This document shows, one piece after another, positions 5,535 to 64,000 of a DNA stretch of 64,000 nt (positions are counted from its first letter, which is position 1; every line of letters begins with the position of its first letter). The stretch is taken from IMG/VR virus record IMGVR_UViG_3300033146_005641, positions 119,352 through 183,351 of that record, one strand, 5' to 3'. This DNA comes from a virus. Its lineage: Duplodnaviria > Heunggongvirae > Uroviricota > Caudoviricetes. The notes under the pieces are model-generated. The model had not been told where the DNA came from, made no database searches, and was given only the letters and a program-made list of their open reading frames with translations. The position numbers were made by a program, and so were the translations under genes.

Positions 5535-5535
5535 C

Positions 5536-6321: not shown

Positions 6322-6324
6322 TTA

Positions 6325-6657: not shown

Positions 6658-6687
6658 AGAATTCCTTTTTTATTTTATTTATATTAT

Positions 6688-10061: not shown

Positions 10062-10120
10062 TTGCTCTCCTTTATATAATATATTATATAATAATAGTCC
10101 TTAATAACATATTAATCATA

Positions 10121-10175: not shown

Positions 10176-10802
10176 ATGAGGTTTAGAGACACTAAATATG
10201 GTGATTTAACAGGACAAACCTATGAAGGTAATATTAGTGTAGAGGATTTAAGTCTAACTTCTCTAGAAGGCGCTCCAGAGGTAGTTAATGGTAATTTTGA
10301 TTGTTATAATAATCAATTAACTTCTCTAAAAGGAGCTCCAGAGGTAGTTAGAGGAAATTTTAATTGTTCTAACAACAATTTAGCCTCTCTAGAGAGAGCT
10401 CCTAAGGTAGTCGATGGTAATTTTTATTGCTCTTACAACAATTTAACCTCTCTAGAGGGGGCTCCGGAGATAATTAATGGTAATTTTTATTGTCATTTTA
10501 ATAATCTAACCTCTCTAGAGGGTTCTCCTAAGGCAGTTAATGGTATTTTTTATTGTTATAATAATAAACTTACTTCTCTAGAAGGAGCTCCAGAGGCAGT
10601 TAGAGGAGATTTTAGTTGCTCAGATAACAATTTAACTTCTCTAGAAGGAGCTCCTAAGGTAGTCGATGGTAATTTTTATTGCTTTAATAATCGACTAGTT
10701 TCTCTAGAAGGTCTACCATACTCTAAAAATGTTAGTTCAGATTTTAGTAAATTAGAAGTTGATGAGTATATGAAGGATGTATTTCCTTATCATTTTATCT
10801 GA
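10176..10802 (+). CDS. LTSLEGAP 21-aa repeat protein (leucine-rich-type repeats), paralog family member
   Basis: N-terminus MRFRDTKYGDLTGQTYEG, then tandem 21-aa units NxLTSLEGAPxxVxGxFxCxx, then C-terminal ...DVFPYHFI. Confidence 0.7.
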   Translation: MRFRDTKYGDLTGQTYEGNISVEDLSLTSLEGAPEVVNGNFDCYNNQLTSLKGAPEVVRGNFNCSNNNLASLERAPKVVDGNFYCSYNNLTSLEGAPEIINGNFYCHFNNLTSLEGSPKAVNGIFYCYNNKLTSLEGAPEAVRGDFSCSDNNLTSLEGAPKVVDGNFYCFNNRLVSLEGLPYSKNVSSDFSKLEVDEYMKDVFPYHFI

Positions 10803-10854
10803 TTTTAAGTCTTATTACACTATAATATATTATATAAAGAGAGAAGGATAGAAA
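10785..10854 (+). promoter_or_regulatory. junction cassette (encodes ...PYHFI stop, promoter, RBS, ATG)
   Basis: CCTTATCATTTTATCTGATTTTAAGTCTTATTACACTATAATATATTATATAAAGAGAGAAGGATAGAAAATG. Confidence 0.55.
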
Positions 10855-26962: not shown

Positions 26963-27752
26963 ATTTCAGTTTAATTTTTATATTAATACTATGTGTAATC
27001 AGAAATGTTCCTATTGTTATGCTAGAGCAGGCATGAAATGGAATACTATTTCTCCGTATGAAGAAATAATAAAAAACATCAATCTATTAATAAATAGACC
27101 TAAATGTATAATAAGTTTGATAGGTGGAGAGCCTACGCTTCATCCTAAATTTGAAAATATTTTAAGAAGCATAAAGGATCTTAATCATAACCTTCATATA
27201 TATACTAACGGAACCTCGTCTTTTTTTAATAATTTAAATTATGATTTATATAGAAAGTTCTTATGGACGTTTAGCTATCACGGAAAGTTTACGAATAACG
27301 AGGAGTTTAAGAGAAATATTTTAAAATTTATAAACAATAATATTAATATAGAATTGACGGTTCCAGCACAAAACTTTAATAAGGATATTTTAAGATTTAT
27401 TCAATATAATAAAATAAAGACAGTTATAACTTTTATACACGATAATTCTAAAACTCAATCTAAAGAAAATATAAAAAAATGGGTTTTAGAATTAGAAGAT
27501 GATAATATAAAAAATATGTCTAAATATTTTTATGAAGATGCCTACTATAAAGGATATACTTGTTATTACAATGAGATAGATGTTATAAATTCGAAAATGA
27601 GGACTAATGATTGTAATCATAATTTGAATCTTTTTATAGATGATAAAAATTTAGATTATATATTTTCTCTACCCTTAACGGTATGTAAAAGAGAGAAATG
27701 TAAAAGAGATTGTGCTTTTTTACTACCTAGGAAGCAAAATGATATTTTCTAA
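26952..27752 (+). CDS. radical SAM enzyme with SPASM-like C-terminus
   Basis: CNQKCSYCYA, GGEPTL, C-terminal CKREKCKRDCAF. Confidence 0.75.
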   Translation: MENRFQFNFYINTMCNQKCSYCYARAGMKWNTISPYEEIIKNINLLINRPKCIISLIGGEPTLHPKFENILRSIKDLNHNLHIYTNGTSSFFNNLNYDLYRKFLWTFSYHGKFTNNEEFKRNILKFINNNINIELTVPAQNFNKDILRFIQYNKIKTVITFIHDNSKTQSKENIKKWVLELEDDNIKNMSKYFYEDAYYKGYTCYYNEIDVINSKMRTNDCNHNLNLFIDDKNLDYIFSLPLTVCKREKCKRDCAFLLPRKQNDIF

Positions 27753-28626
27753 TAAAAACTCTATTAAAAATCACGATTTTTTTATTTTTGAATTGTTGAT
27801 CATAGAATTATGTAATTTTAAATGCAGTTATTGTTATATGAGAAATGAATCTCCTACATGGGGTAGCTTTAGTACGAAGAAAGAAATATTTAAAGTGATT
27901 AAAAAGCTAGAAGAATTAAATAATAAAGTCTCAATATGTTTGAGTGGAGGTGAAGCTAGTCTTCATCCTAATTTTTTAGAGTTTGTAGACTATATTACAA
28001 ATAGTGAGAAGATACATAGTCTTCATATTAATACTAATCTACAATTATCTGAAGAAAAAATAGAAAAGATACTAAAAATAGATTCAGACGTAAAATTTCA
28101 TATATCTTTTCATGCAGGACAATCCGATAAAGATTTTAAAATAAAATTAAAGAAAATTCCAAAAAAGAATCAGGAATTAAATATCATGATACACCCAGCA
28201 AAAAAATATAAAAAAGATATAGATGATATTGTGAAATTTTGTGATACTAATAATATATTATATAATATAAAGCCTATATTTATCAATAGTAAATTTAAAC
28301 CATCACAATACGTTATTGAGTCTATGAATTATAAAAACTCTAATAAAGAATATACTGATGGTAATAGAGATTATAATGATTATGATTTGTATAAAGAGGG
28401 TTTATTACCTATGAATACTCTCGGATGGGAGTGTTATTATATATTTTATACTATAGATTGCAAACAGGGAAATATTAAACAGATGTGTAGACTATATGAT
28501 GATTTAAATATTTTTAAAAATTTTGATTTTTTTAATAATTATGATTTATCTAAACCTATAATATGTTCTTTTAAGAATTCTTGTTTATGGGCTAGTTCGT
28601 TAGATCACTATAAGGTAAAAAAATGA
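27739..28626 (+). CDS. radical SAM enzyme
   Basis: CNFKCSYCYM, SGGEASL, C-terminal CSFKNSCLWAS. Start moved to the ATG at 27739 (AGGAAGCAAAATG) from the GTG at 27712 in the ORF track. Confidence 0.7.
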   Translation: MIFSNKNSIKNHDFFIFELLIIELCNFKCSYCYMRNESPTWGSFSTKKEIFKVIKKLEELNNKVSICLSGGEASLHPNFLEFVDYITNSEKIHSLHINTNLQLSEEKIEKILKIDSDVKFHISFHAGQSDKDFKIKLKKIPKKNQELNIMIHPAKKYKKDIDDIVKFCDTNNILYNIKPIFINSKFKPSQYVIESMNYKNSNKEYTDGNRDYNDYDLYKEGLLPMNTLGWECYYIFYTIDCKQGNIKQMCRLYDDLNIFKNFDFFNNYDLSKPIICSFKNSCLWASSLDHYKVKK

Positions 28627-44684: not shown

Positions 44685-45791
44685 ATGGCTGTTTTTGATA
44701 CGTTTACGTTAGAATTAAAAATTTCAGATCAATGTTCTATGAGATGTCCGTATTGTTATGAAACTTTTACAGATACATATATGACTAAAGAAACTTTTGA
44801 TAGGTCTCTAGTAAAAGTAATAGATATGATGGGGAGATCAGAAACTAAAAAACTTAATTTAAGTTTTTTTGGTGGAGAACCTATGATGAATTGGGAGCTA
44901 ATAGAACATGCTACAAAAGTTCTTAGAAAGCTACCCATAGAGGTTACTTTAGTAGTTATATCTAATATGACTCTTATAGATGAATATAAAGTTAAATGGT
45001 TAAAAGAGAATAATGTGGGGGTATCTTGGTCATTCGATGGAATATCTTCTAATGAAACCAGACCTCTAGCTACCCAATTTATAAATCCAAAAGCAGACGG
45101 AACATCTTATAAAAGTACCCTAGATTTATATAAAGATAAGATAGATCTAATATTGTCTCTTACGAATGGGTGTAAGGTTATGGTGTGGCCAGGTAATTCT
45201 AAACAAATGACAGAGAATTTAGAATTTTTTGTAGATAGTGGAATTATAGCACCCGATTTTTCTTTGATAAGAGATGATGTATGGTCTAAAGAAGATATTA
45301 TTAATTTTAGAGATGATATTAGAAGATTAGGTGATAGATATATTAAATATATAAAAGACGAGGTTTACGTAAATGTTGGTTTCTTTACACTTTGTATTCT
45401 TGATAATATATTTGGATTAACCTTTCAAAAAAGATCTTTCGGGTGTTTTGCAGGTACTACAGGTGCAGTAATGACGACAGATGGAAAATTTTATCCTTGT
45501 GCTAGATTTTCAGATAAAAAAGTTATGGAAATTACACCAGAATATTCTTTTACCTACTGGCAAGAAAAGTTTAAGCCTGAAAACTATGATAAGTGTCAGT
45601 CTTGTGATTTATATGATGTTTGTAATGCAGGGTGTTTATATTCTCAAATTAGAAATAATAATAAACCTTTAGATAGTATATGTGAGCTATATCATATTAT
45701 ACAAGAGGAAACGCAAAGAGTGGTTCACGAATTAAAAGACGAACCAACGTTTCATCAAGTAATAAATAACATTTTTAAAAATATAGGATAG
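44685..45791 (+). CDS. radical SAM enzyme with SPASM domain (anSME-like)
   Basis: CSMRCPYCYE, FGGEPMM, C-terminal CQSCDLYDVCNAGC. Overall layout like anaerobic sulfatase-maturating enzymes. Confidence 0.75.
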   Translation: MAVFDTFTLELKISDQCSMRCPYCYETFTDTYMTKETFDRSLVKVIDMMGRSETKKLNLSFFGGEPMMNWELIEHATKVLRKLPIEVTLVVISNMTLIDEYKVKWLKENNVGVSWSFDGISSNETRPLATQFINPKADGTSYKSTLDLYKDKIDLILSLTNGCKVMVWPGNSKQMTENLEFFVDSGIIAPDFSLIRDDVWSKEDIINFRDDIRRLGDRYIKYIKDEVYVNVGFFTLCILDNIFGLTFQKRSFGCFAGTTGAVMTTDGKFYPCARFSDKKVMEITPEYSFTYWQEKFKPENYDKCQSCDLYDVCNAGCLYSQIRNNNKPLDSICELYHIIQEETQRVVHELKDEPTFHQVINNIFKNIG

Positions 45792-46020: not shown

Positions 46021-46768
46021 AAAATTATTTAGAAATATTTTACGGATTGAAGGTGATATATCTGGAGAGTGGATGTTTGTTATTTTTAATGATTTTTATA
46101 TGAGACATTTATGGTATAATAAATTCAAAAAAATAGATAGATGTTTTAGAAGATGGAAAAAAGTTTGTAAAGATCCTAAGCTAGAAACAGAATGGAATAA
46201 ACCCGAAATTAACGAAGCTTTAGAAGCGGTTCAAAAGTCTTATGATGAGGGTATAGGCTATTTGTATAAATTCGATGAGGAGGATTTAGCTGAATTTATC
46301 TATCCTAAAGCCAAGAGAGATCTTTTGGTAAATGCAAAACTGGTATATTTCTCAAAACAAGATTCTAGGGATATAGAATTCTTAAAAGAAAATATAATAG
46401 AGATTTATAACGAAAAAAATAAATATTTAAGTAGAATAACTTTATTGTATAACTATATAATTAGAATAAAAGATGAACTGTACGGAGACATATATAATGA
46501 GGTGATTAATTCTAATACTAGGTTTACCTTTCAATTAATATGGCTAACACAGAAAACTCTACATCCTCAAGACTATAAGAGAATATTAAAGAAGGTTTTT
46601 AAAAACACCTCTCAGTCCGAACAAAAATTAATAAAAATGTTTTTAGAGTCCAGAATAGGTAAATATAAAGATAATCCTAGATTTTTAAAGGCTAGAGATC
46701 TTGATTCAGAGAAAAGAGAAATAGCTAAAGAATTAATAGAAGAAATTTGGACTAAGCATGGAAGATAA
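45998..46768 (+). CDS. hypothetical protein
   Basis: Start placed at the ATG at 45998, 5 nt after GGAGAG. The ORF track starts at 45983. Confidence 0.4.
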   Translation: MIDIEWLKKLFRNILRIEGDISGEWMFVIFNDFYMRHLWYNKFKKIDRCFRRWKKVCKDPKLETEWNKPEINEALEAVQKSYDEGIGYLYKFDEEDLAEFIYPKAKRDLLVNAKLVYFSKQDSRDIEFLKENIIEIYNEKNKYLSRITLLYNYIIRIKDELYGDIYNEVINSNTRFTFQLIWLTQKTLHPQDYKRILKKVFKNTSQSEQKLIKMFLESRIGKYKDNPRFLKARDLDSEKREIAKELIEEIWTKHGR

Positions 46769-47606
46769 CCTTAGAACTAATGTAGTATTTTTTACTACTA
46801 CGTGTAATTTAGCCTGTACATATTGTTATCAACACGTAAAAGACTATCCTCATAAAGAAACTTCTAAAGAAGAACTTATAGAAATAGTAGACAGAACAGT
46901 AGAAAGAGAGGGGACTGATTCTCAAACTCTATTCATTCTGTTTGGAGGAGAGCCTACTACAAGATGGGAAAATGTAGAGTTTTTTATGGATTATGCATAT
47001 TTTATTAAGGAAAATGTACAGTTTAATATAGTTACTAATGGAATAAAGTTTAAAGATGACAGATTCTTGAAAAAATTTATATCTAATACTCACTATAAGG
47101 AGGGTAGACTTAAGCTAGAAATAAGTTTTGACGGTATCGAAGGAAATTCTGAAAGAATATATCCGAATGGTAAAGATTCTACAAAAGATGTAGTAGAAGT
47201 ATTATTTAAATTAAAAGAGACAAATACTAAATATAGAATAAGATATACAGTACATAAGAAAAATGTTAAAAACTTTGAAAACGATATTCTAAAGATAATG
47301 AAATACTTTAAACCTGAAAGATTAATTTTAAGCGAGTACGAAGATGATCTATCTTCAGATGAGTTAAAATATGTAGAGAATATTAAGAATATCTTAATCA
47401 AAAAATATTATAATAATGAAATAAACATACCAATATGTATGAAATATGATGAAATGTGTGCTGTGTGTGGTAAATGCGGAAATAAACATATTGAGGATTT
47501 TTCTGTAAATTTAGGAAGTAGTTTTTCAGTACAGAAAAAAATAACATTCGATACGTTCGACATGTTTAATAAATTAGCAAAAAATAAGGATAAAAATGAA
47601 AAATAA
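46758..47606 (+). CDS. radical SAM enzyme with C-terminal Cys cluster
   Basis: CNLACTYCYQ, FGGEPTT, C-terminal CMKYDEMCAVCGKCGN. Confidence 0.75.
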   Translation: MEDNLRTNVVFFTTTCNLACTYCYQHVKDYPHKETSKEELIEIVDRTVEREGTDSQTLFILFGGEPTTRWENVEFFMDYAYFIKENVQFNIVTNGIKFKDDRFLKKFISNTHYKEGRLKLEISFDGIEGNSERIYPNGKDSTKDVVEVLFKLKETNTKYRIRYTVHKKNVKNFENDILKIMKYFKPERLILSEYEDDLSSDELKYVENIKNILIKKYYNNEINIPICMKYDEMCAVCGKCGNKHIEDFSVNLGSSFSVQKKITFDTFDMFNKLAKNKDKNEK

Positions 47607-50028: not shown

Positions 50029-50237
50029 TGGAATTTTATTTTAAAAAGACGCTGTTTGGAATGGTTTTAATGGTAAAAGATAGAAAACCAGGAAATTGGC
50101 CTGGAGAGTGGAAGTATTTTTGGAGAAGAGCATCTCAATTAGAAGCGTCTAATTTTACTACTGAAACAGGAATAGCTAAAAAAGAAGTGGAGAGTTATAG
50201 AGAATTTAAGGATAAGTTCCCTCAATATTTTATCTGA
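50025..50237 (+). CDS. small protein ending ...KFPQYFI
   Basis: 70 aa. Start ATGATGG overlaps the upstream stop. Confidence 0.4.
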   Translation: MMEFYFKKTLFGMVLMVKDRKPGNWPGEWKYFWRRASQLEASNFTTETGIAKKEVESYREFKDKFPQYFI

Positions 50238-50290
50238 TTTTAAGTTTTAATATGTTATAATATATTATACAAAGAGAGAAGGATAGAAAG
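50216..50290 (+). promoter_or_regulatory. junction cassette
   Basis: TTCCCTCAATATTTTATCTGATTTTAAGTTTTAATATGTTATAATATATTATACAAAGAGAGAAGGATAGAAAGATG. Confidence 0.55.
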
Positions 50291-50980
50291 ATGAGGTTTA
50301 GAGACACTAAATATGGCGATTTAACAGGACAAACCTATGAAGGAGATATTGATGTAAGTGGTTTAAACTTAACATCTCTAGAGGGTGCTCCAGAGGTAGT
50401 TAAAGAAGGATTTTACTGTAATGATAATCAATTAACTTCTCTAGAGGGTGCTCCTAAGGTAGTCGACGGTAGTTTTTATTGCTATGATAATCAATTAACC
50501 TCTCTAGAGGGTGCTCCTAAGGTAGTTAGAGGAGATTTTGATTGTTATAATAATAAACTAACTTCTCTAGAAGGGGCTCCTGAGGTAGTTAAAGAAGGAT
50601 TTTACTGTAATGAAAACAGTCTAACTTCTCTAGAGGGTGCTCCTGAGGTAATCGGTGGTAATTTTAATTGCACTTACAACAATTTAACTACTCTAGAAGG
50701 AGCTCCAGAGACAGTTGGTGGTAGTTTTAATTGCTCTAAAAATAATCTAACTTCTCTAGAAGGTGCTCCAGAGGTAGTTAATGGTAATTTTAATTGTTAT
50801 AATAATAAACTTACTTCTCTAGAAGGCGCTCCTGAGAGAGTTAGAAGAGATTTTGATTGTTCAGAAAACGATCTAACTTCTCTAGAGGGATTACCTTTTT
50901 CTAGAGAAATAAGGTCCGATTTTGATGAAAGAGAGATTAATGATTATATTAAAGATAGATTTCCCTATCGTTTTATATGA
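50291..50980 (+). CDS. LTSLEGAP 21-aa repeat protein (paralog)
   Basis: MRFRDTKYGDLTGQTYEGDIDVSGLNLTSLEGAPE..., C-terminal ...RFPYRFI. Confidence 0.7.
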   Translation: MRFRDTKYGDLTGQTYEGDIDVSGLNLTSLEGAPEVVKEGFYCNDNQLTSLEGAPKVVDGSFYCYDNQLTSLEGAPKVVRGDFDCYNNKLTSLEGAPEVVKEGFYCNENSLTSLEGAPEVIGGNFNCTYNNLTTLEGAPETVGGSFNCSKNNLTSLEGAPEVVNGNFNCYNNKLTSLEGAPERVRRDFDCSENDLTSLEGLPFSREIRSDFDEREINDYIKDRFPYRFI

Positions 50981-51033
50981 TTTTAAGTCTTATTATACTA
51001 TAATATCTTATATAAAGAGAAAAGGATAGAAAG
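50963..51033 (+). promoter_or_regulatory. junction cassette
   Basis: CCCTATCGTTTTATATGATTTTAAGTCTTATTATACTATAATATCTTATATAAAGAGAAAAGGATAGAAAGATG. Confidence 0.55.
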
Positions 51034-51912
51034 ATGAAGTTTAGAGATACTAAATATGGCGATTTAACAGGACAACCTTATGAAGGTGATGTTGATGTAA
51101 GTGGTTTAAACTTAACATCTCTAGAGGGTGCTCCTGAGGCGGTCGATGGAGATTTTAATTGTTCTAGTAACAATCTAACCTCTCTAGAGGGTACTCCTAA
51201 GGTAGTTGAAGGAGATTTTTACTGCTCTCACAACAATTTAACTTCTCTAGAAGGAGCTCCTGAGATAGTTAATGGTAATTTTAATTGCACTTACAACAAT
51301 TTAGCCTCTCTAGAAGGGGCTCCGGAGGTAATAGATGGTAGTTTTTACTGCTATGATAATCAATTAACTTCTCTAGAAGGGGCTCCTAAGGCAGTTAAAG
51401 GAGATTTTGATTGTTATAATAATAAACTTACTTCTCTAGAAGGTGCTCCAGAGGTAGTTAAAGAAGGATTTTACTGTAATGAAAACGGTCTAACCTCTTT
51501 AGAAGGAGCTCCAGAGATAGTTGATGGTAGTTTTTACTGCTATGATAATCGATTAACCTCTCTAGAAGGAGCTCCTGAGGTAGTCGGTGGTAATTTTAAT
51601 TGCTCTAAAAACAATCTAGCTTCTCTAGAAGGAGCTCCTAAGGTAGTTAATAATAATTTTGATTGCTCTAAAAATAATCTAGTCTCTCTAGAAGGATCTC
51701 CTGAGGTAGTCGGTGGTAGTTTTTACTGCTATGATAATCGATTATCTTCTCTAGAAGGTGCTCCTAAGATAGTTAAAGAAGGGTTTCACTGTAATAAAAA
51801 CAATCTAACTTCTCTAGAGGGAATACCCTATTCTAAAGGAATAATAGCTGATTTTAGTAAACTAGAAGTTAATGATTACCTAAAATCTAAATTTCCTTAT
51901 CATTTTATCTGA
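51034..51912 (+). CDS. LTSLEGAP 21-aa repeat protein (paralog)
   Basis: MKFRDTKYGDLTGQPYEGDVDVSGLNLTSLEGAPE..., C-terminal ...KFPYHFI. Confidence 0.7.
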   Translation: MKFRDTKYGDLTGQPYEGDVDVSGLNLTSLEGAPEAVDGDFNCSSNNLTSLEGTPKVVEGDFYCSHNNLTSLEGAPEIVNGNFNCTYNNLASLEGAPEVIDGSFYCYDNQLTSLEGAPKAVKGDFDCYNNKLTSLEGAPEVVKEGFYCNENGLTSLEGAPEIVDGSFYCYDNRLTSLEGAPEVVGGNFNCSKNNLASLEGAPKVVNNNFDCSKNNLVSLEGSPEVVGGSFYCYDNRLSSLEGAPKIVKEGFHCNKNNLTSLEGIPYSKGIIADFSKLEVNDYLKSKFPYHFI

Positions 51913-51961
51913 TTTTAGGTCTCTTTATTCTATAATATATTATATAAAGAAGGATAGAAAG
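51895..51961 (+). promoter_or_regulatory. junction cassette
   Basis: CCTTATCATTTTATCTGATTTTAGGTCTCTTTATTCTATAATATATTATATAAAGAAGGATAGAAAGATG. Confidence 0.55.
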
Positions 51962-53029
51962 ATGACGTTTAAAGATACTAAGTATGGTGATTTAACAGGA
52001 CAAACCTATAAAGGTGATATTAATGTATGTGGTTTAGATTTAACCTCTCTAGAAGGGGCTCCAGAGGTAGTTGATGGTAGTTTTTACTGCTATGATAATC
52101 AACTAACCTCTCTAGAAGGATCTCCTGAGGTAGTCGATGGTAATTTTTACTGTTATGATAATCAATTAACTTCTCTAGAAGGGGCTCCAGAGGTAGTTGA
52201 TGGTAATTTTTATTGTCATAATAATCAATTGACTTCTCTAGAAGGATCTCCGGAGGTAGTCAGCGGTATTTTTTATTGTTATAATAATAGACTTACTTCT
52301 CTAGAGGGGTCTCCTAAGATAGTTAAAGGAGATTTTTATTGCTCTTACAACAATTTAACTTCTCTAGAGGGGGTTCCGGAGGTAGTTGATGGTAGTTTTT
52401 ATTGCTATGATAATCGATTATCCTCTCTAGAAGGAGCTCCTAGGATAATCGATGGTAATTTTTATTGTTATAATAATCGACTAATTTCTCTAGAAGGTGC
52501 TCCAGAGGCAGTTGATGGTAATTTTTATTGTTATAATAATCGATTAACTTCTCTAGAAGGCTCTCCAGAGGTAGTCGACGATAATTTTGATTGTTCAGAA
52601 AATGATCTAGCTTCTCTAGAAGGGTCTCCTAGAGTAGTTAATAATAATTTTGATTGCTCTAAAAATAATCTAGTCTCTCTAGAAGGATCTCCTGAGGTAG
52701 TTAGAGGATATTTTGATTGTTCAAACAATCAACTAACTTCTCTAGAGGGAGCTCCAGAGATAGTTAAAGAAGGCTTTTACTGTAATAAAAACGATCTAGT
52801 TTCCCTAGAGGGGGCTCCTGAGGTAGTCGATGGTAATTTTAATTGTGCTAAAAATAATCTAACTACGCTAGAAGGGGCTCCTAAGGTAGTTGATGGTAAT
52901 TTTTACTGCTATGATAATCGATTAACTTCTCTAGAGGGATTACCTTTTTCTAGAGAAATAAGGTCTGATTTTAGTAAACTAGAAGTTAATGATTACTTAA
53001 AATCTAAATTCCCTTATCATTTTATCTGA
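51962..53029 (+). CDS. LTSLEGAP 21-aa repeat protein (paralog, longest)
   Basis: MTFKDTKYGDLTGQTYKGDINVCGLDLTSLEGAPE..., C-terminal ...KFPYHFI. Confidence 0.7.
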   Translation: MTFKDTKYGDLTGQTYKGDINVCGLDLTSLEGAPEVVDGSFYCYDNQLTSLEGSPEVVDGNFYCYDNQLTSLEGAPEVVDGNFYCHNNQLTSLEGSPEVVSGIFYCYNNRLTSLEGSPKIVKGDFYCSYNNLTSLEGVPEVVDGSFYCYDNRLSSLEGAPRIIDGNFYCYNNRLISLEGAPEAVDGNFYCYNNRLTSLEGSPEVVDDNFDCSENDLASLEGSPRVVNNNFDCSKNNLVSLEGSPEVVRGYFDCSNNQLTSLEGAPEIVKEGFYCNKNDLVSLEGAPEVVDGNFNCAKNNLTTLEGAPKVVDGNFYCYDNRLTSLEGLPFSREIRSDFSKLEVNDYLKSKFPYHFI

Positions 53030-53082
53030 TTTTAAGTCTTATTACACTATAATATATTATATAAAGAAAGAAGAATAGAAAG
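53012..53082 (+). promoter_or_regulatory. junction cassette
   Basis: CCTTATCATTTTATCTGATTTTAAGTCTTATTACACTATAATATATTATATAAAGAAAGAAGAATAGAAAGATG. Confidence 0.55.
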
Positions 53083-53415
53083 ATGAGAAAGCTTACAAAA
53101 TCAGAACTTAATTTATATAAGGATTATATTTCAGGATATGTATCATTATTATCACCTGAAGAAATGTCTGAAGAAATGGAAATCGAAATTGAAGATACCG
53201 AAACAGGAAAAATAATAACTTCAGGTACCTTTAATCCTTCTTATTTTGTAGAATCTGCTTCAGCAGTAAAAACAGAAGAAATAAATGAACTAAAAAATAT
53301 AATTGAAAGATATGAAAAATTTCTTAATAGAATGTCAATAAAAACAGAATATTATGATATAGATGATATGATAGATGGTCTAGAAGACTATGATGTAGTA
53401 ACTCAAAAAGGATAA
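53083..53415 (+). CDS. hypothetical acidic protein
   Basis: 110 aa. Follows a junction cassette. Confidence 0.4.
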   Translation: MRKLTKSELNLYKDYISGYVSLLSPEEMSEEMEIEIEDTETGKIITSGTFNPSYFVESASAVKTEEINELKNIIERYEKFLNRMSIKTEYYDIDDMIDGLEDYDVVTQKG

Positions 53416-53511
53416 TGATAATACAGAAACTTATAGGTACAATATTACTGATTATAGTGTGTATGAAAAATAACCTACTAGTAAATAATTTAATCTTATA
53501 AAGGAGGAGAA

Positions 53512-53823
53512 ATGGAAATAATGTTTTCGTGGTTTTGGATATTTAGCCTATTCAAATTAATCACAATAGTCGGGTTTACATATTTTATTGTAAAATATAC
53601 AGAATCTAAAAAACTAATATATGCTATTTTAGCTGGATTTTTGCTTATAGCGATAATGGTATTTAGTTCTATTAAAATCAATTCTACAGATTCGAAGAAT
53701 TTTAATAGTTTACAAAATAGTGCTATTGAATCTATTAAAACAACACCAGAAAAGATTAGAGATGATTCTTTTAAAATAGAATCTAATAAAGATATTAGAA
53801 TTAAAAAATCTGATTTAAAATAA
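53512..53823 (+). CDS. small membrane protein
   Basis: Two hydrophobic segments (FSWFWIFSLFKLITIVGFTYFIV; LIYAILAGFLLIAIMVF). AAAGGAGGAGAAATG RBS. Confidence 0.45.
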   Translation: MEIMFSWFWIFSLFKLITIVGFTYFIVKYTESKKLIYAILAGFLLIAIMVFSSIKINSTDSKNFNSLQNSAIESIKTTPEKIRDDSFKIESNKDIRIKKSDLK

Positions 53824-53832: not shown

Positions 53833-54201
53833 ATGAAGAAAATCGGAATGTTATTGTTATTAGGAATTATTACTGTTGTAGTTGCTAAAGGTGTAGGTGC
53901 TAGAGGTGTAGATTATATGTGTAAGCCTGTTGCTTATAGAAATATAAACAAGCCAGACAAGACGATAATGTTTACAATGGATGAACAAAATAGAAGAGGT
54001 CTTTTAAAAATTAGAGTAGATGAGGGAAGAGATATTAGAGATGATGATGGCGTGGTTTTAAAACACACTAGTGGTAACGTTTATAAGGGCGAGGGTATGG
54101 TAAGCGAATTCGAGGATTTCGAAGATAAAAAAGTCTTTTCACTTACAGGCGTTTCGGCGTATCCGCGTATAAATATTTACATTTGTTATAAATCTAATTA
54201 G
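53833..54201 (+). CDS. secreted or membrane-anchored small protein with signal peptide
   Basis: MKKIGMLLLLGIITVVVAKG signal-like N-terminus. AAGGAGAAAAAATG RBS. Confidence 0.45.
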   Translation: MKKIGMLLLLGIITVVVAKGVGARGVDYMCKPVAYRNINKPDKTIMFTMDEQNRRGLLKIRVDEGRDIRDDDGVVLKHTSGNVYKGEGMVSEFEDFEDKKVFSLTGVSAYPRINIYICYKSN

Positions 54202-54256
54202 GAGGAAAAAATGAAGAAACTTGGAATGCTATTAGCTACTTTTAGTAGCGATTTTT

Positions 54257-55084
54257 ATGTTATCTGGATGTAATGAACAAGTGCCTGCAGGAACGGTTGG
54301 AAAGATTATGGGTAAGAATGGGTGGCAGCCAGAAATTTATCCACCATCTAGGGTTTGGATAAAAACCGCTTTTACGATGACACCCGAGAAACTATTTTTA
54401 GTACAAACTACTACTCAAAAATTTGTACAACCTATCAGGGTTCTTTTAAAAGATAAATTGACTTTAAATGCTGAGATTGTTTTTAGAGGAAGAGTTTCTA
54501 CTAATCCTAAAATTCTTAATTCATTATTTAATGATATGCCTATGAATGACAATATCATTACGGTTTCTGAAGTGTATAATACTTATGGAAAGATGATTGT
54601 TCTTAATACGGCGAGAGAGGTAATTTCAAAATATAATGTAGATGAGGTTAATAAAAATTATGCAAGAATTACTATAGAATTGTATAATGCTATTAAACCA
54701 AAACTTAAAAATCTACCTATTTCTATTAGCGATGTAACTATTGGAAATATTGAATATCCTAAAATTGTAACAGAGGCTATTGAAAAAGCTAAACAAAGAA
54801 GAATGGCTATTGAACAAGAACAGGCTCAAGTTCAGATTGAACTAACTAGAGCTAAAGGTAGAGAGGCGGTAGCAAAAGCAGAATATAGAATTAAAATGCT
54901 TGAAGCTAAAAGAATTAGAGATTATAATAGAATGATTGAACAAGGTGTTACTCCAAATCTTTTAAAACTTAGAAGATTAGAGGTGCAAGAGAAAATGATT
55001 GACGCTATTAAGAATAATAAAAATGTCATTTATATGCCTTTAGATATGATGAATAATAGCTCAAATATGAGAATTATTAAGTAG
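54257..55084 (+). CDS. SPFH/band-7 (HflK/C-prohibitin-like) domain protein, probable lipoprotein whose signal peptide lies in an upstream frame (54211..54256)
   Basis: C-terminal AIEKAKQRRMAIEQEQAQVQIELTRAKGREAVAKAEYRIKMLEAK is typical of SPFH coiled-coil regions. ATG at 54211 with an AGGAGGAAAAAATG RBS encodes MKKLGMLLATFSSDF. It is out of frame by one nt at a T5 run (54252-54256) with the MLSGC (lipobox LSGC) start of the long ORF. Confidence 0.55.
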   Translation: MLSGCNEQVPAGTVGKIMGKNGWQPEIYPPSRVWIKTAFTMTPEKLFLVQTTTQKFVQPIRVLLKDKLTLNAEIVFRGRVSTNPKILNSLFNDMPMNDNIITVSEVYNTYGKMIVLNTAREVISKYNVDEVNKNYARITIELYNAIKPKLKNLPISISDVTIGNIEYPKIVTEAIEKAKQRRMAIEQEQAQVQIELTRAKGREAVAKAEYRIKMLEAKRIRDYNRMIEQGVTPNLLKLRRLEVQEKMIDAIKNNKNVIYMPLDMMNNSSNMRIIK

Positions 55085-55137
55085 TTTTAATTCGGGTTCC
55101 TTCGGGAGCTCTTTTTAAAATTATAGAAGGAGAAAAA

Positions 55138-55559: not shown

Positions 55560-56477
55560 ATGAATGATTATAAGCTAGAGGGTTTTCCTGATATTATAAG
55601 AGAATCTATAAAGGAAACACCGCCTATAAGATCTAGAAATGAAATTATAAAAATTTTAGAAAACATCATAGATTTAGAGGGTCTTCACTTTTATGTTTTT
55701 GGAGGATCTCAACATCTTTTAGATATTAGTAATGAATTTACGAATAATTCCGATATAGATTTTTTCTTTCCTACAGAAGAGGATTATAAAGAAATGTTAA
55801 AGAGGATGAGAAATAGCAAGAAATGCTATTTCTCCTCTTCTAAATTTTCAGACCATACATCTTTAAATGATTTTACACTTCAGCTAATAAATTATAAATT
55901 TGGCGACCATCACTATCATTTTGACGAGTTTGATCTTAATAAATCTAAAATCGGATTTGAATATATAGACGGAAAACTAATAGATAGAAGAGGAGATGAC
56001 TATGAAGATGATCTTTATATAATTTACGAGAAATTTAATGTTCAAACCGCAAATAGATATATAAAATATTTTTATAGATGCTATGATAAGAATCATCTTG
56101 AAGATTTATCTCATCCGGTCTCTTATAGCTTTTTAAAAGACATAGAACATATATCATCCTACCTAATATCTAATGAAAATATAAAATATGATTCATATAA
56201 TAATAATTTCAAAATAGGATATCAAATTCTTGAATCATTAGTAAGAATATTAGTGGATAATGGTGAAATATCCTCTAAATGCATAGATATCATCTTAGAG
56301 GAAATGAAAAAGAAATGGAACACTAGTAAAGTTATTAGTTTTTGGAAGATTTTTTACGAAGGTGTAATCAATAACTATAACTCTATGCATAGAGATGAAA
56401 TATATTCTGCTCACTCTTCTCTACATTCTAAAGTATCGGTCGAATTTAAAAATAAATTTCCTCAATATTTTATCTAG
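55560..56477 (+). CDS. Pol-beta-type nucleotidyltransferase-fold protein ending ...KFPQYFI
   Basis: FGGSQHLLDISNEFTNNSDIDFFF (GGS x12 DID signature). Confidence 0.45.
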   Translation: MNDYKLEGFPDIIRESIKETPPIRSRNEIIKILENIIDLEGLHFYVFGGSQHLLDISNEFTNNSDIDFFFPTEEDYKEMLKRMRNSKKCYFSSSKFSDHTSLNDFTLQLINYKFGDHHYHFDEFDLNKSKIGFEYIDGKLIDRRGDDYEDDLYIIYEKFNVQTANRYIKYFYRCYDKNHLEDLSHPVSYSFLKDIEHISSYLISNENIKYDSYNNNFKIGYQILESLVRILVDNGEISSKCIDIILEEMKKKWNTSKVISFWKIFYEGVINNYNSMHRDEIYSAHSSLHSKVSVEFKNKFPQYFI

Positions 56478-56529
56478 CTTTAAGTCTCTTTATTCTATAA
56501 TATGTTAATATAAAGAGAAAAGGAAAGAG
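56460..56529 (+). promoter_or_regulatory. junction cassette
   Basis: CCTCAATATTTTATCTAGCTTTAAGTCTCTTTATTCTATAATATGTTAATATAAAGAGAAAAGGAAAGAGATG. Confidence 0.55.
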
Positions 56530-56760
56530 ATGAAAGCTTACGAAAGCTCTATAACTAATAAATTATATAAAAATATAGAAGATCTTAAAAAAGATGAAAG
56601 AGATTTTATAAAATCATATTTATATAATAACCTAGAATGGATGGAATATAAAGGAGATCTTATAGAACTAGATTTACTCTTCGATGCTTTTGATAGATTT
56701 GGAAAAGATATAGCTTTAGATATTTTAGATAAATTAAGAACAGAGAACGGTAATGATTAG
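56530..56760 (+). CDS. hypothetical protein
   Basis: 76 aa. Confidence 0.4.
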   Translation: MKAYESSITNKLYKNIEDLKKDERDFIKSYLYNNLEWMEYKGDLIELDLLFDAFDRFGKDIALDILDKLRTENGND

Positions 56761-57862
56761 AACTACACCAGATAAATTATTTGAAAATCTAATGACTTTA
56801 ACAAATACTAACGAAGCCTTTTATTTTTCTGATCAAGACATAACTATTAATGAAAAAAAATATATTATAAGATCATTCTCCTATCGTCTTGCTTCATATA
56901 CAGACTTTACTGATAATGTACATTTGTCTGCAAGAGAGGCAAGAGGAACCGCATTTTATACTGAAAAAGGTAGAGAAGATTGGAAACTCTTTTGTCGTGC
57001 ATATCCTAAATTCTGGAATCTCGGTGAGGGTGTTGACCAAAACACTTTCATCAATGAACACAACCCCTATACATCTTTTGAAAAAATAGATGGTTCATTA
57101 ATGCTTTTTGGTAAAATCGGTGATAAAGTTACTGCTAAATCGAAAACATCTATAAATTCTGATCAAGCACAAATGGCTCAAAAAATTTATGATGATGATA
57201 AAACAATTCAAAAAACAGTTGAATATCTAATCGACCATAATTATACACCTGTATTTGAGTTGATAGGTCCTGATAATGTTGTTGTTCTTCGCTATCCTAA
57301 AAATGAACTAGTACTTCTTGGATACATTGAAAATGATACTGGTAGGGTGGTTCCGGCGGGTAGGTTTGAAAGAAATAAATTTGGTATTAAAACACCTAAA
57401 GTTTATAAACATGCTTGGAATGAACTCTTACATATTAAAGAAAGTTCAACTGATAATATTGAGGGTTTTGTTGTGATTACAGACAAAGATGAGTTTGTTA
57501 AGGTTAAAACTCAATTCTATGTAAATAAACATCATCTTAAAGACAACATCAATAACATTAAATCTTTAACAGAACTAATACTTGATGATAACGTTGATGA
57601 TATTATTTCAGAGTTTCAGGGTGATCAAGAAACAATCAATTATATTGTTGAAATGCAGTCAAAAATCGGTCATAAATTCAACCATTTAGTAGCAACAGTT
57701 GAATCATACGTAAACGAGAATAAAGACCTAGATAGAAAAGAGTTTGCTATCAAAACTAAAAAAGACTTTCAAGAACGTTTTGGATTAGCAATGAATATAT
57801 ATTTAGATAAATCACCAAACTATAAAGAATATTTTATGAAAAATAGGATGTATAATGAGTGA
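56753..57862 (+). CDS. rnlA: RNA ligase 1 (T4 RnlA / gp63 homolog)
   Basis: LFENLMTLTNTNEAFYFSDQDITINEKKYIIRSFSYRLASYTDF versus T4 [43 protein letters not shown]. Motif I FEKIDGSLM (T4 LTKEDGSLV). Confidence 0.85.
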   Translation: MIRTTPDKLFENLMTLTNTNEAFYFSDQDITINEKKYIIRSFSYRLASYTDFTDNVHLSAREARGTAFYTEKGREDWKLFCRAYPKFWNLGEGVDQNTFINEHNPYTSFEKIDGSLMLFGKIGDKVTAKSKTSINSDQAQMAQKIYDDDKTIQKTVEYLIDHNYTPVFELIGPDNVVVLRYPKNELVLLGYIENDTGRVVPAGRFERNKFGIKTPKVYKHAWNELLHIKESSTDNIEGFVVITDKDEFVKVKTQFYVNKHHLKDNINNIKSLTELILDDNVDDIISEFQGDQETINYIVEMQSKIGHKFNHLVATVESYVNENKDLDRKEFAIKTKKDFQERFGLAMNIYLDKSPNYKEYFMKNRMYNE

Positions 57863-58208
57863 AATACAAGAAATAAAAAAAGATATAAAGAGTTATGAAA
57901 TCTGTAAGAATTATAAAGACGGATTTTTATTATTAAAATCTGAAAATACTATGATGTCTGGTAACAAAATTACAATTCATAAACATACCTTTCATATTGT
58001 GAATGAAACGGAAGATTCTTATGAGGTAGTACAGGGTCCTATTATTAAAATACCTAAAAGCGATTTAATATTAGATGAGGTTGAGGCTACCTATAAAACT
58101 ATACTATATAGATTACAAGAAGGTTTAGGTATAAGTAGATCTCATCAAAATAAATATCCTGAACTGATAGAAAAGGTTAAAATAGAATATCCTCAATATT
58201 TTATCTGA
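57855..58208 (+). CDS. hypothetical protein ending ...EYPQYFI
   Basis: 117 aa. Confidence 0.4.
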   Translation: MSEIQEIKKDIKSYEICKNYKDGFLLLKSENTMMSGNKITIHKHTFHIVNETEDSYEVVQGPIIKIPKSDLILDEVEATYKTILYRLQEGLGISRSHQNKYPELIEKVKIEYPQYFI

Positions 58209-58261
58209 TTTTAAGTTAGCTTATATTATAATATACTACATAAAGAGAAAAGGATAGAAGG
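58191..58261 (+). promoter_or_regulatory. junction cassette
   Basis: CCTCAATATTTTATCTGATTTTAAGTTAGCTTATATTATAATATACTACATAAAGAGAAAAGGATAGAAGGATG. Confidence 0.5.
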
Positions 58262-59421: not shown

Positions 59422-59669
59422 TGGAGAGATATGGTAGATATAATAAGTTAGGATTTTTTAAATTTGATTCTATACATCCTGAGGATTTACCAAAAGTAAT
59501 CAAAATAATAGAAACCGGAGATCTTACTCTTAAAAGCTATACAAAAGATTTCTTTAATTTTGCTCTTATACCGGCTTTTATTTTTTATCCTTTTTTTCTA
59601 GGATATTGGGGTATAGAAAGATTTAGATTTTATCTATTTCTTAAAAAACATCCTCAATATAGAATCTAA
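59421..59669 (+). CDS. small membrane protein ending ...HPQYRI (variant tail)
   Basis: 82 aa. FALIPAFIFYPFFLGYWGI hydrophobic segment. Confidence 0.4.
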   Translation: MERYGRYNKLGFFKFDSIHPEDLPKVIKIIETGDLTLKSYTKDFFNFALIPAFIFYPFFLGYWGIERFRFYLFLKKHPQYRI

Positions 59670-59724
59670 TCTGATTTTAAGTCTTATAATACAATATATT
59701 ATATAAAGAGAGAAGGATAGAAAG
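59652..59724 (+). promoter_or_regulatory. junction cassette (deletion variant in tail-coding part)
   Basis: CCTCAATATAGAATCTAATCTGATTTTAAGTCTTATAATACAATATATTATATAAAGAGAGAAGGATAGAAAGATG. Confidence 0.5.
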
Positions 59725-59970
59725 ATGATAGTTTTATATCAAAATAGAAACGAGAATGATGAATTATATTACGCTGAACTTTTGACAGATCCTCATCTTA
59801 TTGAGGAAGGTATATCATATATAAGTGTAGGTACTAATCATAGACTGAATTCACCTCATATATCTGATTGGAAAAAATTATATATAAACTCGGTAAATTT
59901 GAAAGATGTTGTGTGTCTTTATAGAGATATGGATTCATTAAAATGGCATCAAGCGGCTTATTTTATATGA
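59725..59970 (+). CDS. hypothetical protein ending ...AAYFI
   Basis: 81 aa. Confidence 0.4.
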   Translation: MIVLYQNRNENDELYYAELLTDPHLIEEGISYISVGTNHRLNSPHISDWKKLYINSVNLKDVVCLYRDMDSLKWHQAAYFI

Positions 59971-61879: not shown

Positions 61880-62176
61880 ATGATAGAATGGAAAGATTTA
61901 GAGGTTGGGGATGTATTTATCTATAGGTTTGAAAAAGATTCTTATTTTTTAGCATATGTTTTACGGGCTAATAAAGATGTAAGTATCGAGATTCAAGATA
62001 TAAAGAATATTTCAAGAGGTGTGTCGAAAGGTATGTCCATAGAAGTAGATTCTTTTAATATATTTTTTAGTGATAAATATGATATGAGTACTTTTAAATT
62101 AGTAAAATATTTAGGTAATTTGAAAGGTGGAAGAGTAGAAGAGTTTAGTGTTAAGTTTCCTCAATATTTTATATAG
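61880..62176 (+). CDS. 98-aa protein, tandem paralog 1, ending ...VKFPQYFI
   Basis: MIEWKDLEVGDVFIYRFEKDSYFLAYVL... Confidence 0.5.
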   Translation: MIEWKDLEVGDVFIYRFEKDSYFLAYVLRANKDVSIEIQDIKNISRGVSKGMSIEVDSFNIFFSDKYDMSTFKLVKYLGNLKGGRVEEFSVKFPQYFI

Positions 62177-62229
62177 CTTTAAGATATATTACAATATAAT
62201 ATATTATATAAAGAGAAAAGGATAGAAAG
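62159..62229 (+). promoter_or_regulatory. junction cassette
   Basis: CCTCAATATTTTATATAGCTTTAAGATATATTACAATATAATATATTATATAAAGAGAAAAGGATAGAAAGATG. Confidence 0.5.
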
Positions 62230-62526
62230 ATGAGAGAATGGAAAGATTTAGAAGTTGGGGATGTATTTATCTATAGGCTTGAAAAAGATTATTATTTTTT
62301 AGCATATGTTTTACAAGCTAACGAAGATGTAAGTATCGAGATTCAAGATATAAAGAATATTTCAAGCGGTATATTAAAAGATGCGCCTATAGAAGTAGAT
62401 TATTTTAATATATTTTTTAATGGTAAATATGATATGAACACTTTTAAATTAGTAAAATATTTAGGTAATTTGAAAGGTGGAAGAGTAGAAGAGTTTAGTG
62501 TTAAGTTTCCTCAATATTTTATCTAA
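62230..62526 (+). CDS. 98-aa protein, tandem paralog 2, ending ...VKFPQYFI
   Basis: MREWKDLEVGDVFIYRLEKDYYFLAYVL... Near-identical to 61880..62176 except for a central patch. Confidence 0.5.
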   Translation: MREWKDLEVGDVFIYRLEKDYYFLAYVLQANEDVSIEIQDIKNISSGILKDAPIEVDYFNIFFNGKYDMNTFKLVKYLGNLKGGRVEEFSVKFPQYFI

Positions 62527-62575
62527 TTTTAGGTTATTTTATTCTATAATATATTATATAAAGAAGGATATAAAG
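62509..62575 (+). promoter_or_regulatory. junction cassette
   Basis: CCTCAATATTTTATCTAATTTTAGGTTATTTTATTCTATAATATATTATATAAAGAAGGATATAAAGATG. Confidence 0.5.
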
Positions 62576-63391
62576 ATGAAGTTTAGAGACACTAAATACG
62601 GTGATTTAACAGGACAAACCTATGAAGATAATATTGATGTATGTGGTTTAGATTTAACCTCTCTAGAGGGTGCTCCTGAGATAGTTAATGGTAGTTTTTA
62701 CTGCTATGATAATCAACTAACTTCTCTAGAGGGTGCTCCTAAGACAATCGATGGTAGTTTTAATTGCTCTAGCAACAATCTAACTTCTCTAGAAGGAGCT
62801 CCAGGGGCAGGTAAAGACGGGTTTTACTGTAATAACAACAATCTATCTTCTCTAGAGGGTTCTCCTAGGATGGTCGATGGTAATTTTAATTGCTCTTACA
62901 ACAATTTAACTTCTCTAGAAGGAGCTCCAGGAGTAGTTAATGGTAGTTTTTACTGTTATGATAATCAACTAACCTCTCTAGAAGGAGCTCCGGAGGTAGT
63001 TAATAATAATTTTAATTGTTCAGATAATCAACTAACTTCTCTAGAAGGAGCTCCAGGAGTAGTTAATGGTAATTTTAATTGCTTTAGCAATCAATTAACT
63101 TCCCTAGAGGGGGCTCCGAAGGTAGTTAGTGGTAGTTTTGAATGTTCTTACAATAATCTAACTTCTCTAGAAGGAGCTCCGGAGGTAGTTAATAATAATT
63201 TTAATTGCTCTAAAAATAATCTAACCTCTCTAGAAGGAGCCCCTAAGGTAGTTAGTGGTAATTTTTACTGTTATGATAATCGATTAGCTTCATTAGGATA
63301 TCTACCCTACTCTAAAAATGTTAGTTCAGATTTTAATAAAAATGAAGTTAATGATTACTTAAAATCTAAATTCCCTCAACATTTTATCTGA
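62576..63391 (+). CDS. LTSLEGAP 21-aa repeat protein (paralog)
   Basis: Start at the ATG at 62576 (MKFRDTKYGDLTGQTYEDNIDVCGLDLTSLEGAPE). The ORF track's 62498 GTG start runs through the junction cassette. C-terminal ...KFPQHFI. Confidence 0.7.
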   Translation: MKFRDTKYGDLTGQTYEDNIDVCGLDLTSLEGAPEIVNGSFYCYDNQLTSLEGAPKTIDGSFNCSSNNLTSLEGAPGAGKDGFYCNNNNLSSLEGSPRMVDGNFNCSYNNLTSLEGAPGVVNGSFYCYDNQLTSLEGAPEVVNNNFNCSDNQLTSLEGAPGVVNGNFNCFSNQLTSLEGAPKVVSGSFECSYNNLTSLEGAPEVVNNNFNCSKNNLTSLEGAPKVVSGNFYCYDNRLASLGYLPYSKNVSSDFNKNEVNDYLKSKFPQHFI

Positions 63392-63402
63392 TTTTAAGTC
63401 TA
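63374..63402 (+). promoter_or_regulatory. truncated junction cassette (tail-coding part plus TGATTTTAAGTCT only; promoter, RBS and ATG missing)
   Basis: CCTCAACATTTTATCTGATTTTAAGTCT is followed immediately by mid-repeat coding sequence. Confidence 0.5.
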
Positions 63403-63990
63403 GAGGTAGTTAAAGGAAGTTTTTACAGCTTTAATAATCAATTAACCTCTCTAGAGGGTGCTCCAGAGGTAGTTAGAGGAAATTTTAATTGTTCTAACAA
63501 CAATTTAACCTCTCTAGAGGGTGCTCCTAAGGTAGTTAGAGGAGATTTTGATTGTTATAATAATAAACTAACTTCTCTAGAGGGTGCTCCTAAGGTAGTT
63601 AGAGGAGATTTTGATTGTTATAATAATAAACTAACCTCTCTAGAAGGGGCTCCTAGGGCAGTTAATGGTAATTTTAATTGCTCTAGCAACAATTTAGCTT
63701 CTCTAGAAGGAGCTCCTAAGACAGTTAAAGGAGATTTTTATTGTTCTTACAACGATCTAACTTCTCTAGAGGGAGTTCCGGAGGTAGTCGATGGTAGCTT
63801 TTACTGTAATGAAAACAATCTAACTACTCTAGAAGGAGCTCCTAAGGCAGTTAAAGGAGATTTTTACTGCTATGATAATCGATTAACTTCATTAGGATAT
63901 CTACCCTACTCTAAAAATGTTAGTTCAGATTTTAATAAAAATGAAGTTAATGATTACTTAAAATCTAAATTCCCTCAACATTTTATCTGA
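63403..63990 (+). pseudogene. 5'-truncated, start-less LTSLEGAP repeat-gene fragment (mosaic of paralog sequences) ending ...KFPQHFI
   Basis: In-frame repeat units (EVVKGSFYSFNNQLTSLEGAPEVVRGNFNCSNNNLTSLEGAPKVVRGDFDCYNNKLTSLEG...) begin directly after TGATTTTAAGTCT. No ATG, GTG or TTG lies in frame between the upstream stop (63352-63354) and the TGA at 63988-63990. Segments are identical to parts of the 10176 and 50291 genes. Confidence 0.6.
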
Positions 63991-64000
63991 TTTTAAGTCT
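63972..64000 (+). promoter_or_regulatory. next junction cassette (cut by window end)
   Basis: CCCTCAACATTTTATCTGATTTTAAGTCT at the window edge. Confidence 0.45.

Follow-up and report, generated by a model that had tools for sequence, protein, structure and literature searches.

The locus at 54211-55084 on the + strand of the window, by which we mean the whole stretch of 64,000 nucleotides of Caudoviricetes DNA that was analysed, is, as judged from its sequence, a gene for a phage SPFH/Band-7 lipoprotein of the phrog_200 family, of which it is a divergent new member. The gene is disrupted: a signal peptide and the SPFH domain that should follow it are read in different frames, and 290 aa are encoded once one T at 54240-54243 is removed. 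This T4 run (+ strand), which is T3 in four contigs of the closest relative, is almost certainly where the lesion lies, with the change from T3 to T4 falling in codon 11 of the predicted signal peptide. Further, the frameshift is very probably a single, recent, lineage-specific +1 insertion that is not programmed. All other features described below are also on the + strand.

The locus as written and the position of the lesion

As written, the locus contains two open reading frames. The first starts at ATG 54211, which is served by the Shine-Dalgarno site AGGAGG at 54200-54205, and it has only 20 codons (54211-54273, MKKLGMLLATFSSDFYVIWM, stop at 54271-54273). The signal peptide genuinely begins with its codons 1-10, and what follows them is out of frame. 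The second is the SPFH/Band-7 ORF of 275 aa (54257-55084), which has its ATG at 54257 and begins MLSGC, so that it starts three residues ahead of the lipobox Cys. The two are one frame apart and a one-base deletion joins them. A preliminary description of this DNA had noted the strong AGGAGG ribosome-binding site with the short ORF at ATG 54211, as well as a 275-aa SPFH ORF starting MLSGC; both are confirmed here, the latter also by a Pfam Band_7 match of 63.8 bits.

The ORF of 275 aa has neither a signal peptide nor the N-terminal membrane anchor that is a feature of the SPFH family. The anchor is present in almost all complete relatives, and here it is regained only on removing one T at 54240-54243. 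In the window, SD-like 4-mers are found ahead of 44 of the 76 ORFs of at least 90 aa, against a background of 13%. Most genes of the window thus have such a motif, but none is found in the 20 nt upstream of ATG 54257. The extra T puts the sequence out of frame, and as written, translation from the real start ends after 20 codons. The lipoprotein can therefore not be made from the gene as written, because of this early stop and because the 275-aa ORF has neither a ribosome-binding site nor a signal peptide.

The frame of the SPFH ORF is open back to 54236, where it reads LLLVAIFMLSGC (L-L-L-V-A-I-F-M-L-S-G-C). The zero and +1 frames overlap by 38 nt (54236-54273), with U-rich codons inside the overlap. 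As a predicted hydrophobic core, the L-L-L-V-A-I-F of the SPFH frame is far better than the A-T-F-S-S-D-F of the zero frame. Any single-base deletion within 54234-54273 fuses the two ORFs. It had been claimed that the removal of one T from the T5 run at 54252-54256 fuses them, which is true, but a deletion anywhere in this interval does likewise.

Two other ways of reading the start were tried and rejected. TTG 54221 is not a likely start codon, as the ribosome-binding site serves ATG 54211 instead. Recoding of the stop codon TAG at 54233-54235, which lies in the SPFH frame, is not needed, since the standard code already yields dense ORFs in this window of 28% GC. No tRNA genes were found in the window.

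The lesion was placed by DNA alignments with L001-L004, four contigs that carry an intact relative of 98% protein identity, and with the more distant L009, L011 and L006. The alignment with L001-L004 has a single gap, in the first T run, where the window reads ACTTTTAG and the four contigs read AC-TTTAG. In a five-way DNA alignment the ATG and the Cys codon are 57 nt apart in L001, L009 and L011, and the window has 58 nt here. Because the alignments gap there and because of this difference in spacing, we place the lesion at 54240-54243.

The T5 run at 54252-54256, in which the preliminary description had located the shift, is not the lesion. L001-L004 have TTTTC at this place, a run of equal length, and the difference is a synonymous change from TTC to TTT that leaves the length as it was. 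Further, the intact gene of L009 reads TTA-GTA-GC-ATT-TTT (L-V-A-I-F), with its T5 run in frame. According to the DNA alignments the true site is 12 nt upstream, at 54240-54243. The same alignments agree with the more general claim that a one-nucleotide shift in a T homopolymer separates the signal peptide from the mature SPFH part.

The position of the deletion also decides what signal peptide is obtained. A lipobox of the PROSITE PS00013/PS51257 type follows the pattern {DERK}(6)-[LIVMFWSTAG](2)-[LIVMFYSTAGCQ]-[AGS]-C, with the Cys at position 15-35 and a K or R among the first seven residues. This rule is matched by the product of repair in the T4 run, MKKLGMLLATLVAIFMLSGC, with the lipobox Cys at position 20, while the gene as written does not match it. 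The repair in the T5 run proposed earlier gives MKKLGMLLATFSSDFMLSGC (…ATFSSDFMLSGC), which puts Ser-Ser-Asp in the hydrophobic core and does not match because of the Asp. The fused peptide had been called a textbook lipoprotein signal, a description that suits the product of the T4 repair and not the one for which it was given.

In general the homologues follow the same rule: 105 of 119 pass it, and most of the failures have an Asn-containing lipobox (e.g. TNC) or are truncated. An acidic residue in the hydrophobic core was found in none of the 120 proteins listed, and Cys20 does not vary when 40 or 80 sequences are aligned.

Relatives and alternative routes to expression

A protein search found 245 homologues. 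Among the 120 listed, nearly all are 276-303 aa long and have a lipoprotein signal with the Cys at about position 20; the 275-aa product of the window stands apart from them. More than 130 relatives were examined, and almost all have an intact signal and none has the frameshift of the window. At the DNA level 13 relatives from IMG/VR were studied: in 12 a ribosome-binding site is followed by an intact gene, and the gene of the thirteenth is truncated where its contig ends. One very short homologue, P0119, might be taken for a parallel N-terminal truncation; this was rejected, since a run of 100 Ns in its scaffold accounts for the shortness.

The closest homologue, P0002, is 98% identical, has 290 aa and starts MKKIGMLLATLAAIFMLSGC. 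It is encoded on the four contigs L001-L004, which come from four samples, and the repaired product of the window aligns to it over the full length at 98% identity. These contigs share with the window the order 103-aa ORF, 117/122-aa ORF, SPFH gene, 136-aa ORF and 305-aa ORF. They differ in having T3 and an intact lipoprotein gene where the window has T4, and by about 9-13% nucleotide divergence over three collinear blocks. Further, L001 has an additional gene of 97 aa and what is left of a second SPFH copy, neither of which is present in the window. A second SPFH copy that could compensate for the broken one was not found in the window, the remnant being present in L001 and L002 only.

Closer relatives were also searched for. 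No near-identical DNA was found among the GenBank phages, and no exact match to P0001 or to three neighbouring proteins. For a contig of the same strain that covers the T run, a pattern scan of viral contigs found none and a scan of metagenomes returned only the contig of the relative. Bacterial relatives were not found in 185,579 species genomes; this comes from two scans with few peptide patterns and is weak as an indication of absence.

The preliminary description had also offered slippage as an on/off switch, in which the length of the T5 run at 54252-54256 would vary during replication, transcription or translation and so turn production of the lipoprotein on or off. The ORFs are indeed joined when one T is deleted there, and U-UUU-U would allow perfect re-pairing of tRNA-Phe after a +1 slip. 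However, the run equals the TTTTC of the relatives in length, the intact L009 reads a T5 run in frame, and the product, with Ser-Ser-Asp in its core, departs from the lipobox rule and has no counterpart among the 120 listed proteins, none of which is acidic there. Phase-variable contingency tracts are typically at least 7 nt long and length-polymorphic among close relatives. Runs of 4-5 nt are far below the known ones in length, and there is no length polymorphism across the four contigs of the closest relative. The window contains 183 T5 and 545 T4 runs.

The features of a contingency locus are not seen at the actual lesion either. The tract at 54240-54243 is 4 nt long, T3 is seen in each of the four independent contigs of the relative, and no break is found in 119 proteins and 13 viral contigs, which speaks against switching as it had been proposed. 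We regard switching at the T5 run as very improbable.

Programmed +1 ribosomal frameshifting would restore a full-length lipoprotein from the sequence as written. It would find room in the 38-nt overlap of the two frames with its U-rich codons, and a small hairpin is present at 54235-54249. On the other hand, the frameshift is missing from every relative examined (119 proteins, 4 + 3 contigs and 13 contigs from IMG/VR), and a conserved programmed frameshift is excluded because no other member of the family shows it. The shift site itself has no stop or rare codon and no upstream SD-like stimulator, the codon after U-UUU-U is UAU, and an Rfam search gave no match. Programmed frameshifting is accordingly the least probable of the readings considered here, and extremely so.

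The hairpin (GCTACT-TTT-AGTAGC, found in the terminator scan) has the extra T in its loop. In the window its folding energy is -6.6 kcal/mol (z = -2.7); in L001 the z is -0.55, and L006 has no such hairpin. It was rejected as a conserved attenuator or frameshift stimulator, as it is specific to the window and has no match in Rfam. Probably it is incidental.

A third route would be expression of the 275-aa ORF from ATG 54257 as a cytoplasmic SPFH protein that lacks a signal peptide and whose function is either new or retained. The ORF is intact, and termination-reinitiation is conceivable, as ATG 54257 is 14 nt upstream of the stop of the short ORF. Against this, 54257 has no Shine-Dalgarno motif, unlike most genes here, every complete member of the family has a lipoprotein signal with an invariant Cys20, and such a protein would not have the membrane tether that is common to every SPFH structure matched. 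A functional protein of this kind is highly unlikely. Trace expression from the T4 allele could occur, either by reinitiation at 54257 or by spontaneous +1 slippage on U-UUU-U at 54252-54256.

Age and nature of the break

When the repaired gene is compared with that of L001, there are 41 synonymous and 7 non-synonymous differences, which gives a dN/dS of 0.037. This is the tightest constraint among the neighbouring genes that were measured. The codons of the signal peptide, read in the repaired frame, have 5 synonymous and 2 conservative changes. No second lesion was found in the SPFH gene, and both the ribosome-binding site and the terminator are intact. Selection has thus maintained the gene as an intact lipoprotein through nearly all of the divergence, and therefore the break, if it is real at all, is very recent. 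Both possibilities had been raised in the preliminary description, as a recent pseudogenising slip and as a sequencing error, and both stay live.

A separate observation concerns the allele in the majority: that it should carry a frameshift is unexpected under such strong purifying selection, and this favours an artefact.

The alignment of about 15 kb to L001, with about 1,600 substitutions, gives an indication of the quality of the assembly. In this alignment the T insertion is the only ORF-breaking indel for which the frame is confirmed by a relative. The other non-triplet indels are intergenic, are located at the extreme end of an ORF or, at 58910, lie no more than about 100 nt from the doubtful upstream start of a mechanically called ORF. 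No other frameshift was found in the window, and split genes, which would be a signature of error, were found in none of five overlapping ORF pairs.

To polarise the changes in the mature protein two outgroups were used. Four non-synonymous and 12 synonymous changes fall on the lineage of the window, while the lineage of L001 has 0 and 13. This difference in replacements does not reach significance (Fisher p=0.11), and it is a hint of relaxed constraint.

We lean slightly towards the frameshift being a genuine, recent loss-of-function allele and not a consensus or assembly error, because the assembly is otherwise clean and because the replacements fall on the lineage of the window. It is quite possible, if not our preferred reading, that the phage truly has T3 at 54240-54243 with an intact gene for 290 aa, and that the extra T is a homopolymer consensus error. 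The site is a homopolymer and all other members of the family are intact. Further, the gene is perfect in all other respects, from its dN/dS to its ribosome-binding site and terminator, and a frameshift in so constrained a gene should meet counter-selection. What argues against an error is that T4 is a short run, that the absence of any further frame-breaking indel from the 15 kb aligned and from the five ORF pairs indicates an assembly that is not error-prone, and that replacements are slightly in excess on the lineage of the window.

Family, neighbourhood and proposed function

The assignment to the family is based on several searches. Pfam Band_7 (PF01145) matches residues 59-210, with the score given above against a gathering cutoff of 23.6, and the phrog_200 HMM, annotated 'lipoprotein', matches residues 1-284 (E=2.4e-39, 136.5 bits). 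A sequence search of the PDB gave prohibitin, with E=1.2e-5. The AlphaFold model of the 98%-identical P0002, made as a monomer, has a pLDDT of 81.9 and contains the SPFH alpha/beta core and helices at 184-243 and 248-267. With this model Foldseek found prohibitin, HflK/C, stomatin, erlin, flotillin and QmcA over nearly the whole length, at E-values of about 1e-9 to 3e-15.

With these cellular SPFH proteins, which form cages, the phage protein shares the predicted alpha/beta core and the two helices after it, the first of about 60 residues. However, its identity to them is only 14-19%, and they are anchored by a transmembrane helix or hairpin where the phage protein has a lipobox Cys. An NfeD partner, as in an operon of the QmcA-YbbJ type, was not detected, as none of the five flanking small ORFs had any Pfam match (E<=0.01).

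Among GenBank phages, tblastn gave matches in 133 records; the best-listed hits have 28-37% identity and are annotated as 'SPFH domain protein' or 'lipoprotein'. Many of these are jumbo phages of Pseudomonas, Vibrio, Aeromonas, Erwinia and Klebsiella. RisingSun gp131 (Erwinia), PS119XW gp317 (Pseudomonas) and Miami gp157 (Klebsiella) are about 288-290 aa long and have an N-terminal lipobox (LLSGC or VTGC), just as the repaired protein of the window. They differ in that the jumbo-phage proteins are at most 37% identical to it (about 34% for the cultured homologues with a lipobox), and in that the copy in the window is frameshifted. Metagenomic and viral contigs are the only known source of the clade to which the window belongs (at least 58% identity).

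The gene appears to belong to a small transcription unit. A cassette of about 75 nt at 53007-53082 (TTTTAAGTCT…CTATAATAT…AAAGAGAGAAGGATAGAAAGATG), with a TATAAT-like box and an AAGGA ribosome-binding site, is repeated ahead of at least 10 genes of the window. It is likely the start of the unit that holds the SPFH gene, acting as its putative promoter and leader. Downstream, at 55094-55111, there is a hairpin like that of an intrinsic terminator, GGGTTCC-TTCG-GGAGCTC followed by T5; the scan found 2 terminator-like sites, where 0.4 are expected from shuffled sequences. With the cassette upstream and this hairpin downstream as bounds, the arrangement suggests a unit of cassette, 110-aa ORF, 103-aa ORF, 122-aa ORF, SPFH gene and terminator.

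The first ORF after the cassette, of 110 aa (53083-53415), has no match in Pfam or PHROG; a gene of the same length, with 90% identical DNA, is at the matching position in L001. It is followed by a small membrane protein of 103 aa (53512-53823), with two hydrophobic segments and a hydrophilic tail of only about 45 aa. Homologues of this protein are encoded just upstream of the SPFH gene in L001 (87% identity), L006 (36%, E=5e-13) and L011 (36%, E=2.5e-12). In RisingSun, PS119XW and Miami, proteins of about 115 aa with two transmembrane segments and a similar architecture directly precede the SPFH gene and overlap its start. The arrangement differs in the clade of the window, where a variable small ORF stands between the two.

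In the window this variable slot is occupied by an ORF of 122 aa (53833-54201), which is 70% identical to a 117-aa ORF of L001 and has no family match in Pfam, PHROG or PADLOC. In L006, L009 and L011 the slot contains unrelated small ORFs. The preliminary description had pointed to the ORF at 53833 as a secreted small protein next to the SPFH gene. A signal- or anchor-like segment is indeed seen at its N-terminus, but its position is variable and the conserved neighbour is the 103-aa protein with two transmembrane segments.

In its intact form the lipoprotein would be translated from the strong ribosome-binding site at 54200-54205 and exported by means of the signal peptide MKKLGMLLATLVAIFM-LSGC. 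As judged from the features of the family, Cys20 would then receive a lipid, signal peptidase II would cleave the precursor, and the protein would be tethered at the extracytoplasmic face of the host membrane. The fold matches suggest that the SPFH domain and the long helices probably form a ring or cage like that of HflK/C, prohibitin or stomatin, and the small two-TM protein, which is conserved and encoded just upstream, is its probable partner.

The role of phage SPFH proteins has been termed 'poorly understood' (PMC7760394), and we found no functional study of phage SPFH lipoproteins in the literature. RisingSun gp131 has been found by mass spectrometry of crude lysate (PMC6034870). PADLOC gave no hit that would make the locus part of a defence system, and the membrane-modulating or superinfection-exclusion module suggested in the preliminary description is speculative. 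An unlikely but related pair of ideas is that the T4 allele is real and dominant since loss of the lipoprotein is conditionally advantageous, for example by escape from a host defence or receptor-level interaction that senses the protein, or that the conserved pair of two-TM protein and SPFH lipoprotein, which occurs in several lineages of jumbo phages, forms a cage like that of HflK/C on the extracytoplasmic side and with it remodels the envelope of the host during infection.

For annotation, the locus should be recorded as one lipoprotein gene of 290 aa with a frameshift at 54240-54243, and not as a cytoplasmic SPFH protein of 275 aa plus an orphan peptide. The frameshift itself is biologically ordinary. 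Should the broken allele turn out to be genuine and frequent, the role of the protein could be probed with it as a natural knockout. Of mild interest is the family, whose SPFH lipoproteins keep the lipobox Cys without exception and are under very strong purifying selection; they are widespread in large and jumbo phages and usually encoded beside a small two-TM protein. Only the role of this family and of its conserved two-TM partner is worth carrying forward.

The sequence around the frameshift

At 54235-54249, where the SPFH gene is frameshifted, the window contains a perfect hairpin, GCTACT-TTT-AGTAGC, followed by GATTTTTATG. This hairpin is specific to the window: at the same site the relatives have an imperfect version, GCCAC…GCGGC. 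Among the changes that separate the window from its relatives here, two seem compensatory, replacing a C-G pair by T-A, and another restores pairing where the relatives have an A·C mismatch. The loop is made larger by the extra T. The hairpin may be due to chance, or it may be the mutational footprint of a quasi-palindrome.

A resemblance is also seen between the SPFH gene and the 122-aa ORF directly upstream of it. The two start almost alike, with MKKIGMLLLL in the 122-aa ORF (53833-53860) and MKKLGMLL in the SPFH gene (54211-54236), and their DNA is similar too. This likeness may mean that both signal sequences go back to one ancestor, or it may stem from codon bias alone.

Repeated cassette and paralogous genes in the window

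At least 10 genes in the window, many of which are leucine-rich-repeat (LRR) paralogues, have a conserved cassette in the intergenic DNA 5' of them, about 75 nt long and with the pattern …ATTTTATCTGATTTTAAGTCT..TTATACTATAATATATTATATAAAGAGAGAAGGATAGAAAGATG. One copy lies at 53007-53082; the others are at about 10100-10175, 10775-10854, 50215-50290, 50960-51033, 51885-51961, 56445-56530, 58175-58260, 59660-59725 and 62150-62229. The cassette looks like a phage promoter together with a 5' leader and a ribosome-binding site common to the copies.

The LRR proteins form a multi-copy family with a repeat unit of about 21 aa (…NRLTSLEGAPEVVDGNFYCY…). Their genes are dispersed across the window (10176-10802, 50291-53029 and 62498-64000), and the copies share 70-80% DNA identity.

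Several radical-SAM paralogues are also present. The pair at 26952-27752 and 27712-28626 was considered as the halves of one split gene, a reading that was rejected as both are full-length paralogues. Two further ORFs, at 44685-45791 and 46758-47606, are probably radical-SAM genes, judging from collinear Pfam-annotated genes in L001, a contig of the closest relative. A homologue of T4 RNA ligase 1 is located at 56753-57862.

The SPFH region in related contigs

In L006, a more distantly related contig of jumbo-phage size (Ga0256836_1000002, 281 kb), the intact SPFH lipoprotein gene lies in region 3757-10757. Its neighbours there include the counter-defence-type genes Tad2-like, anti-Pycsar Apyc1 and NADAR, as well as a GGDEF protein and a ClpB-like ATPase.

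Gene content differs between the window and the closest relative. Most of a 97-aa gene of L001 (8984-9277) is missing from the window, a difference of 238 bp, and all that is left at this position is a 28-aa ORF (53415-53501). Further, in L001 and in L002, another contig of this relative, the remnant of a second SPFH copy is found 5' of the intact gene (8342-8577), with no counterpart in the window. It consists of a 106-nt internal SPFH fragment, matching window positions 54441-54546 at 95%, joined to the 3' end of the gene and its terminator. This remnant implies that the SPFH gene was once duplicated and that one copy then decayed.
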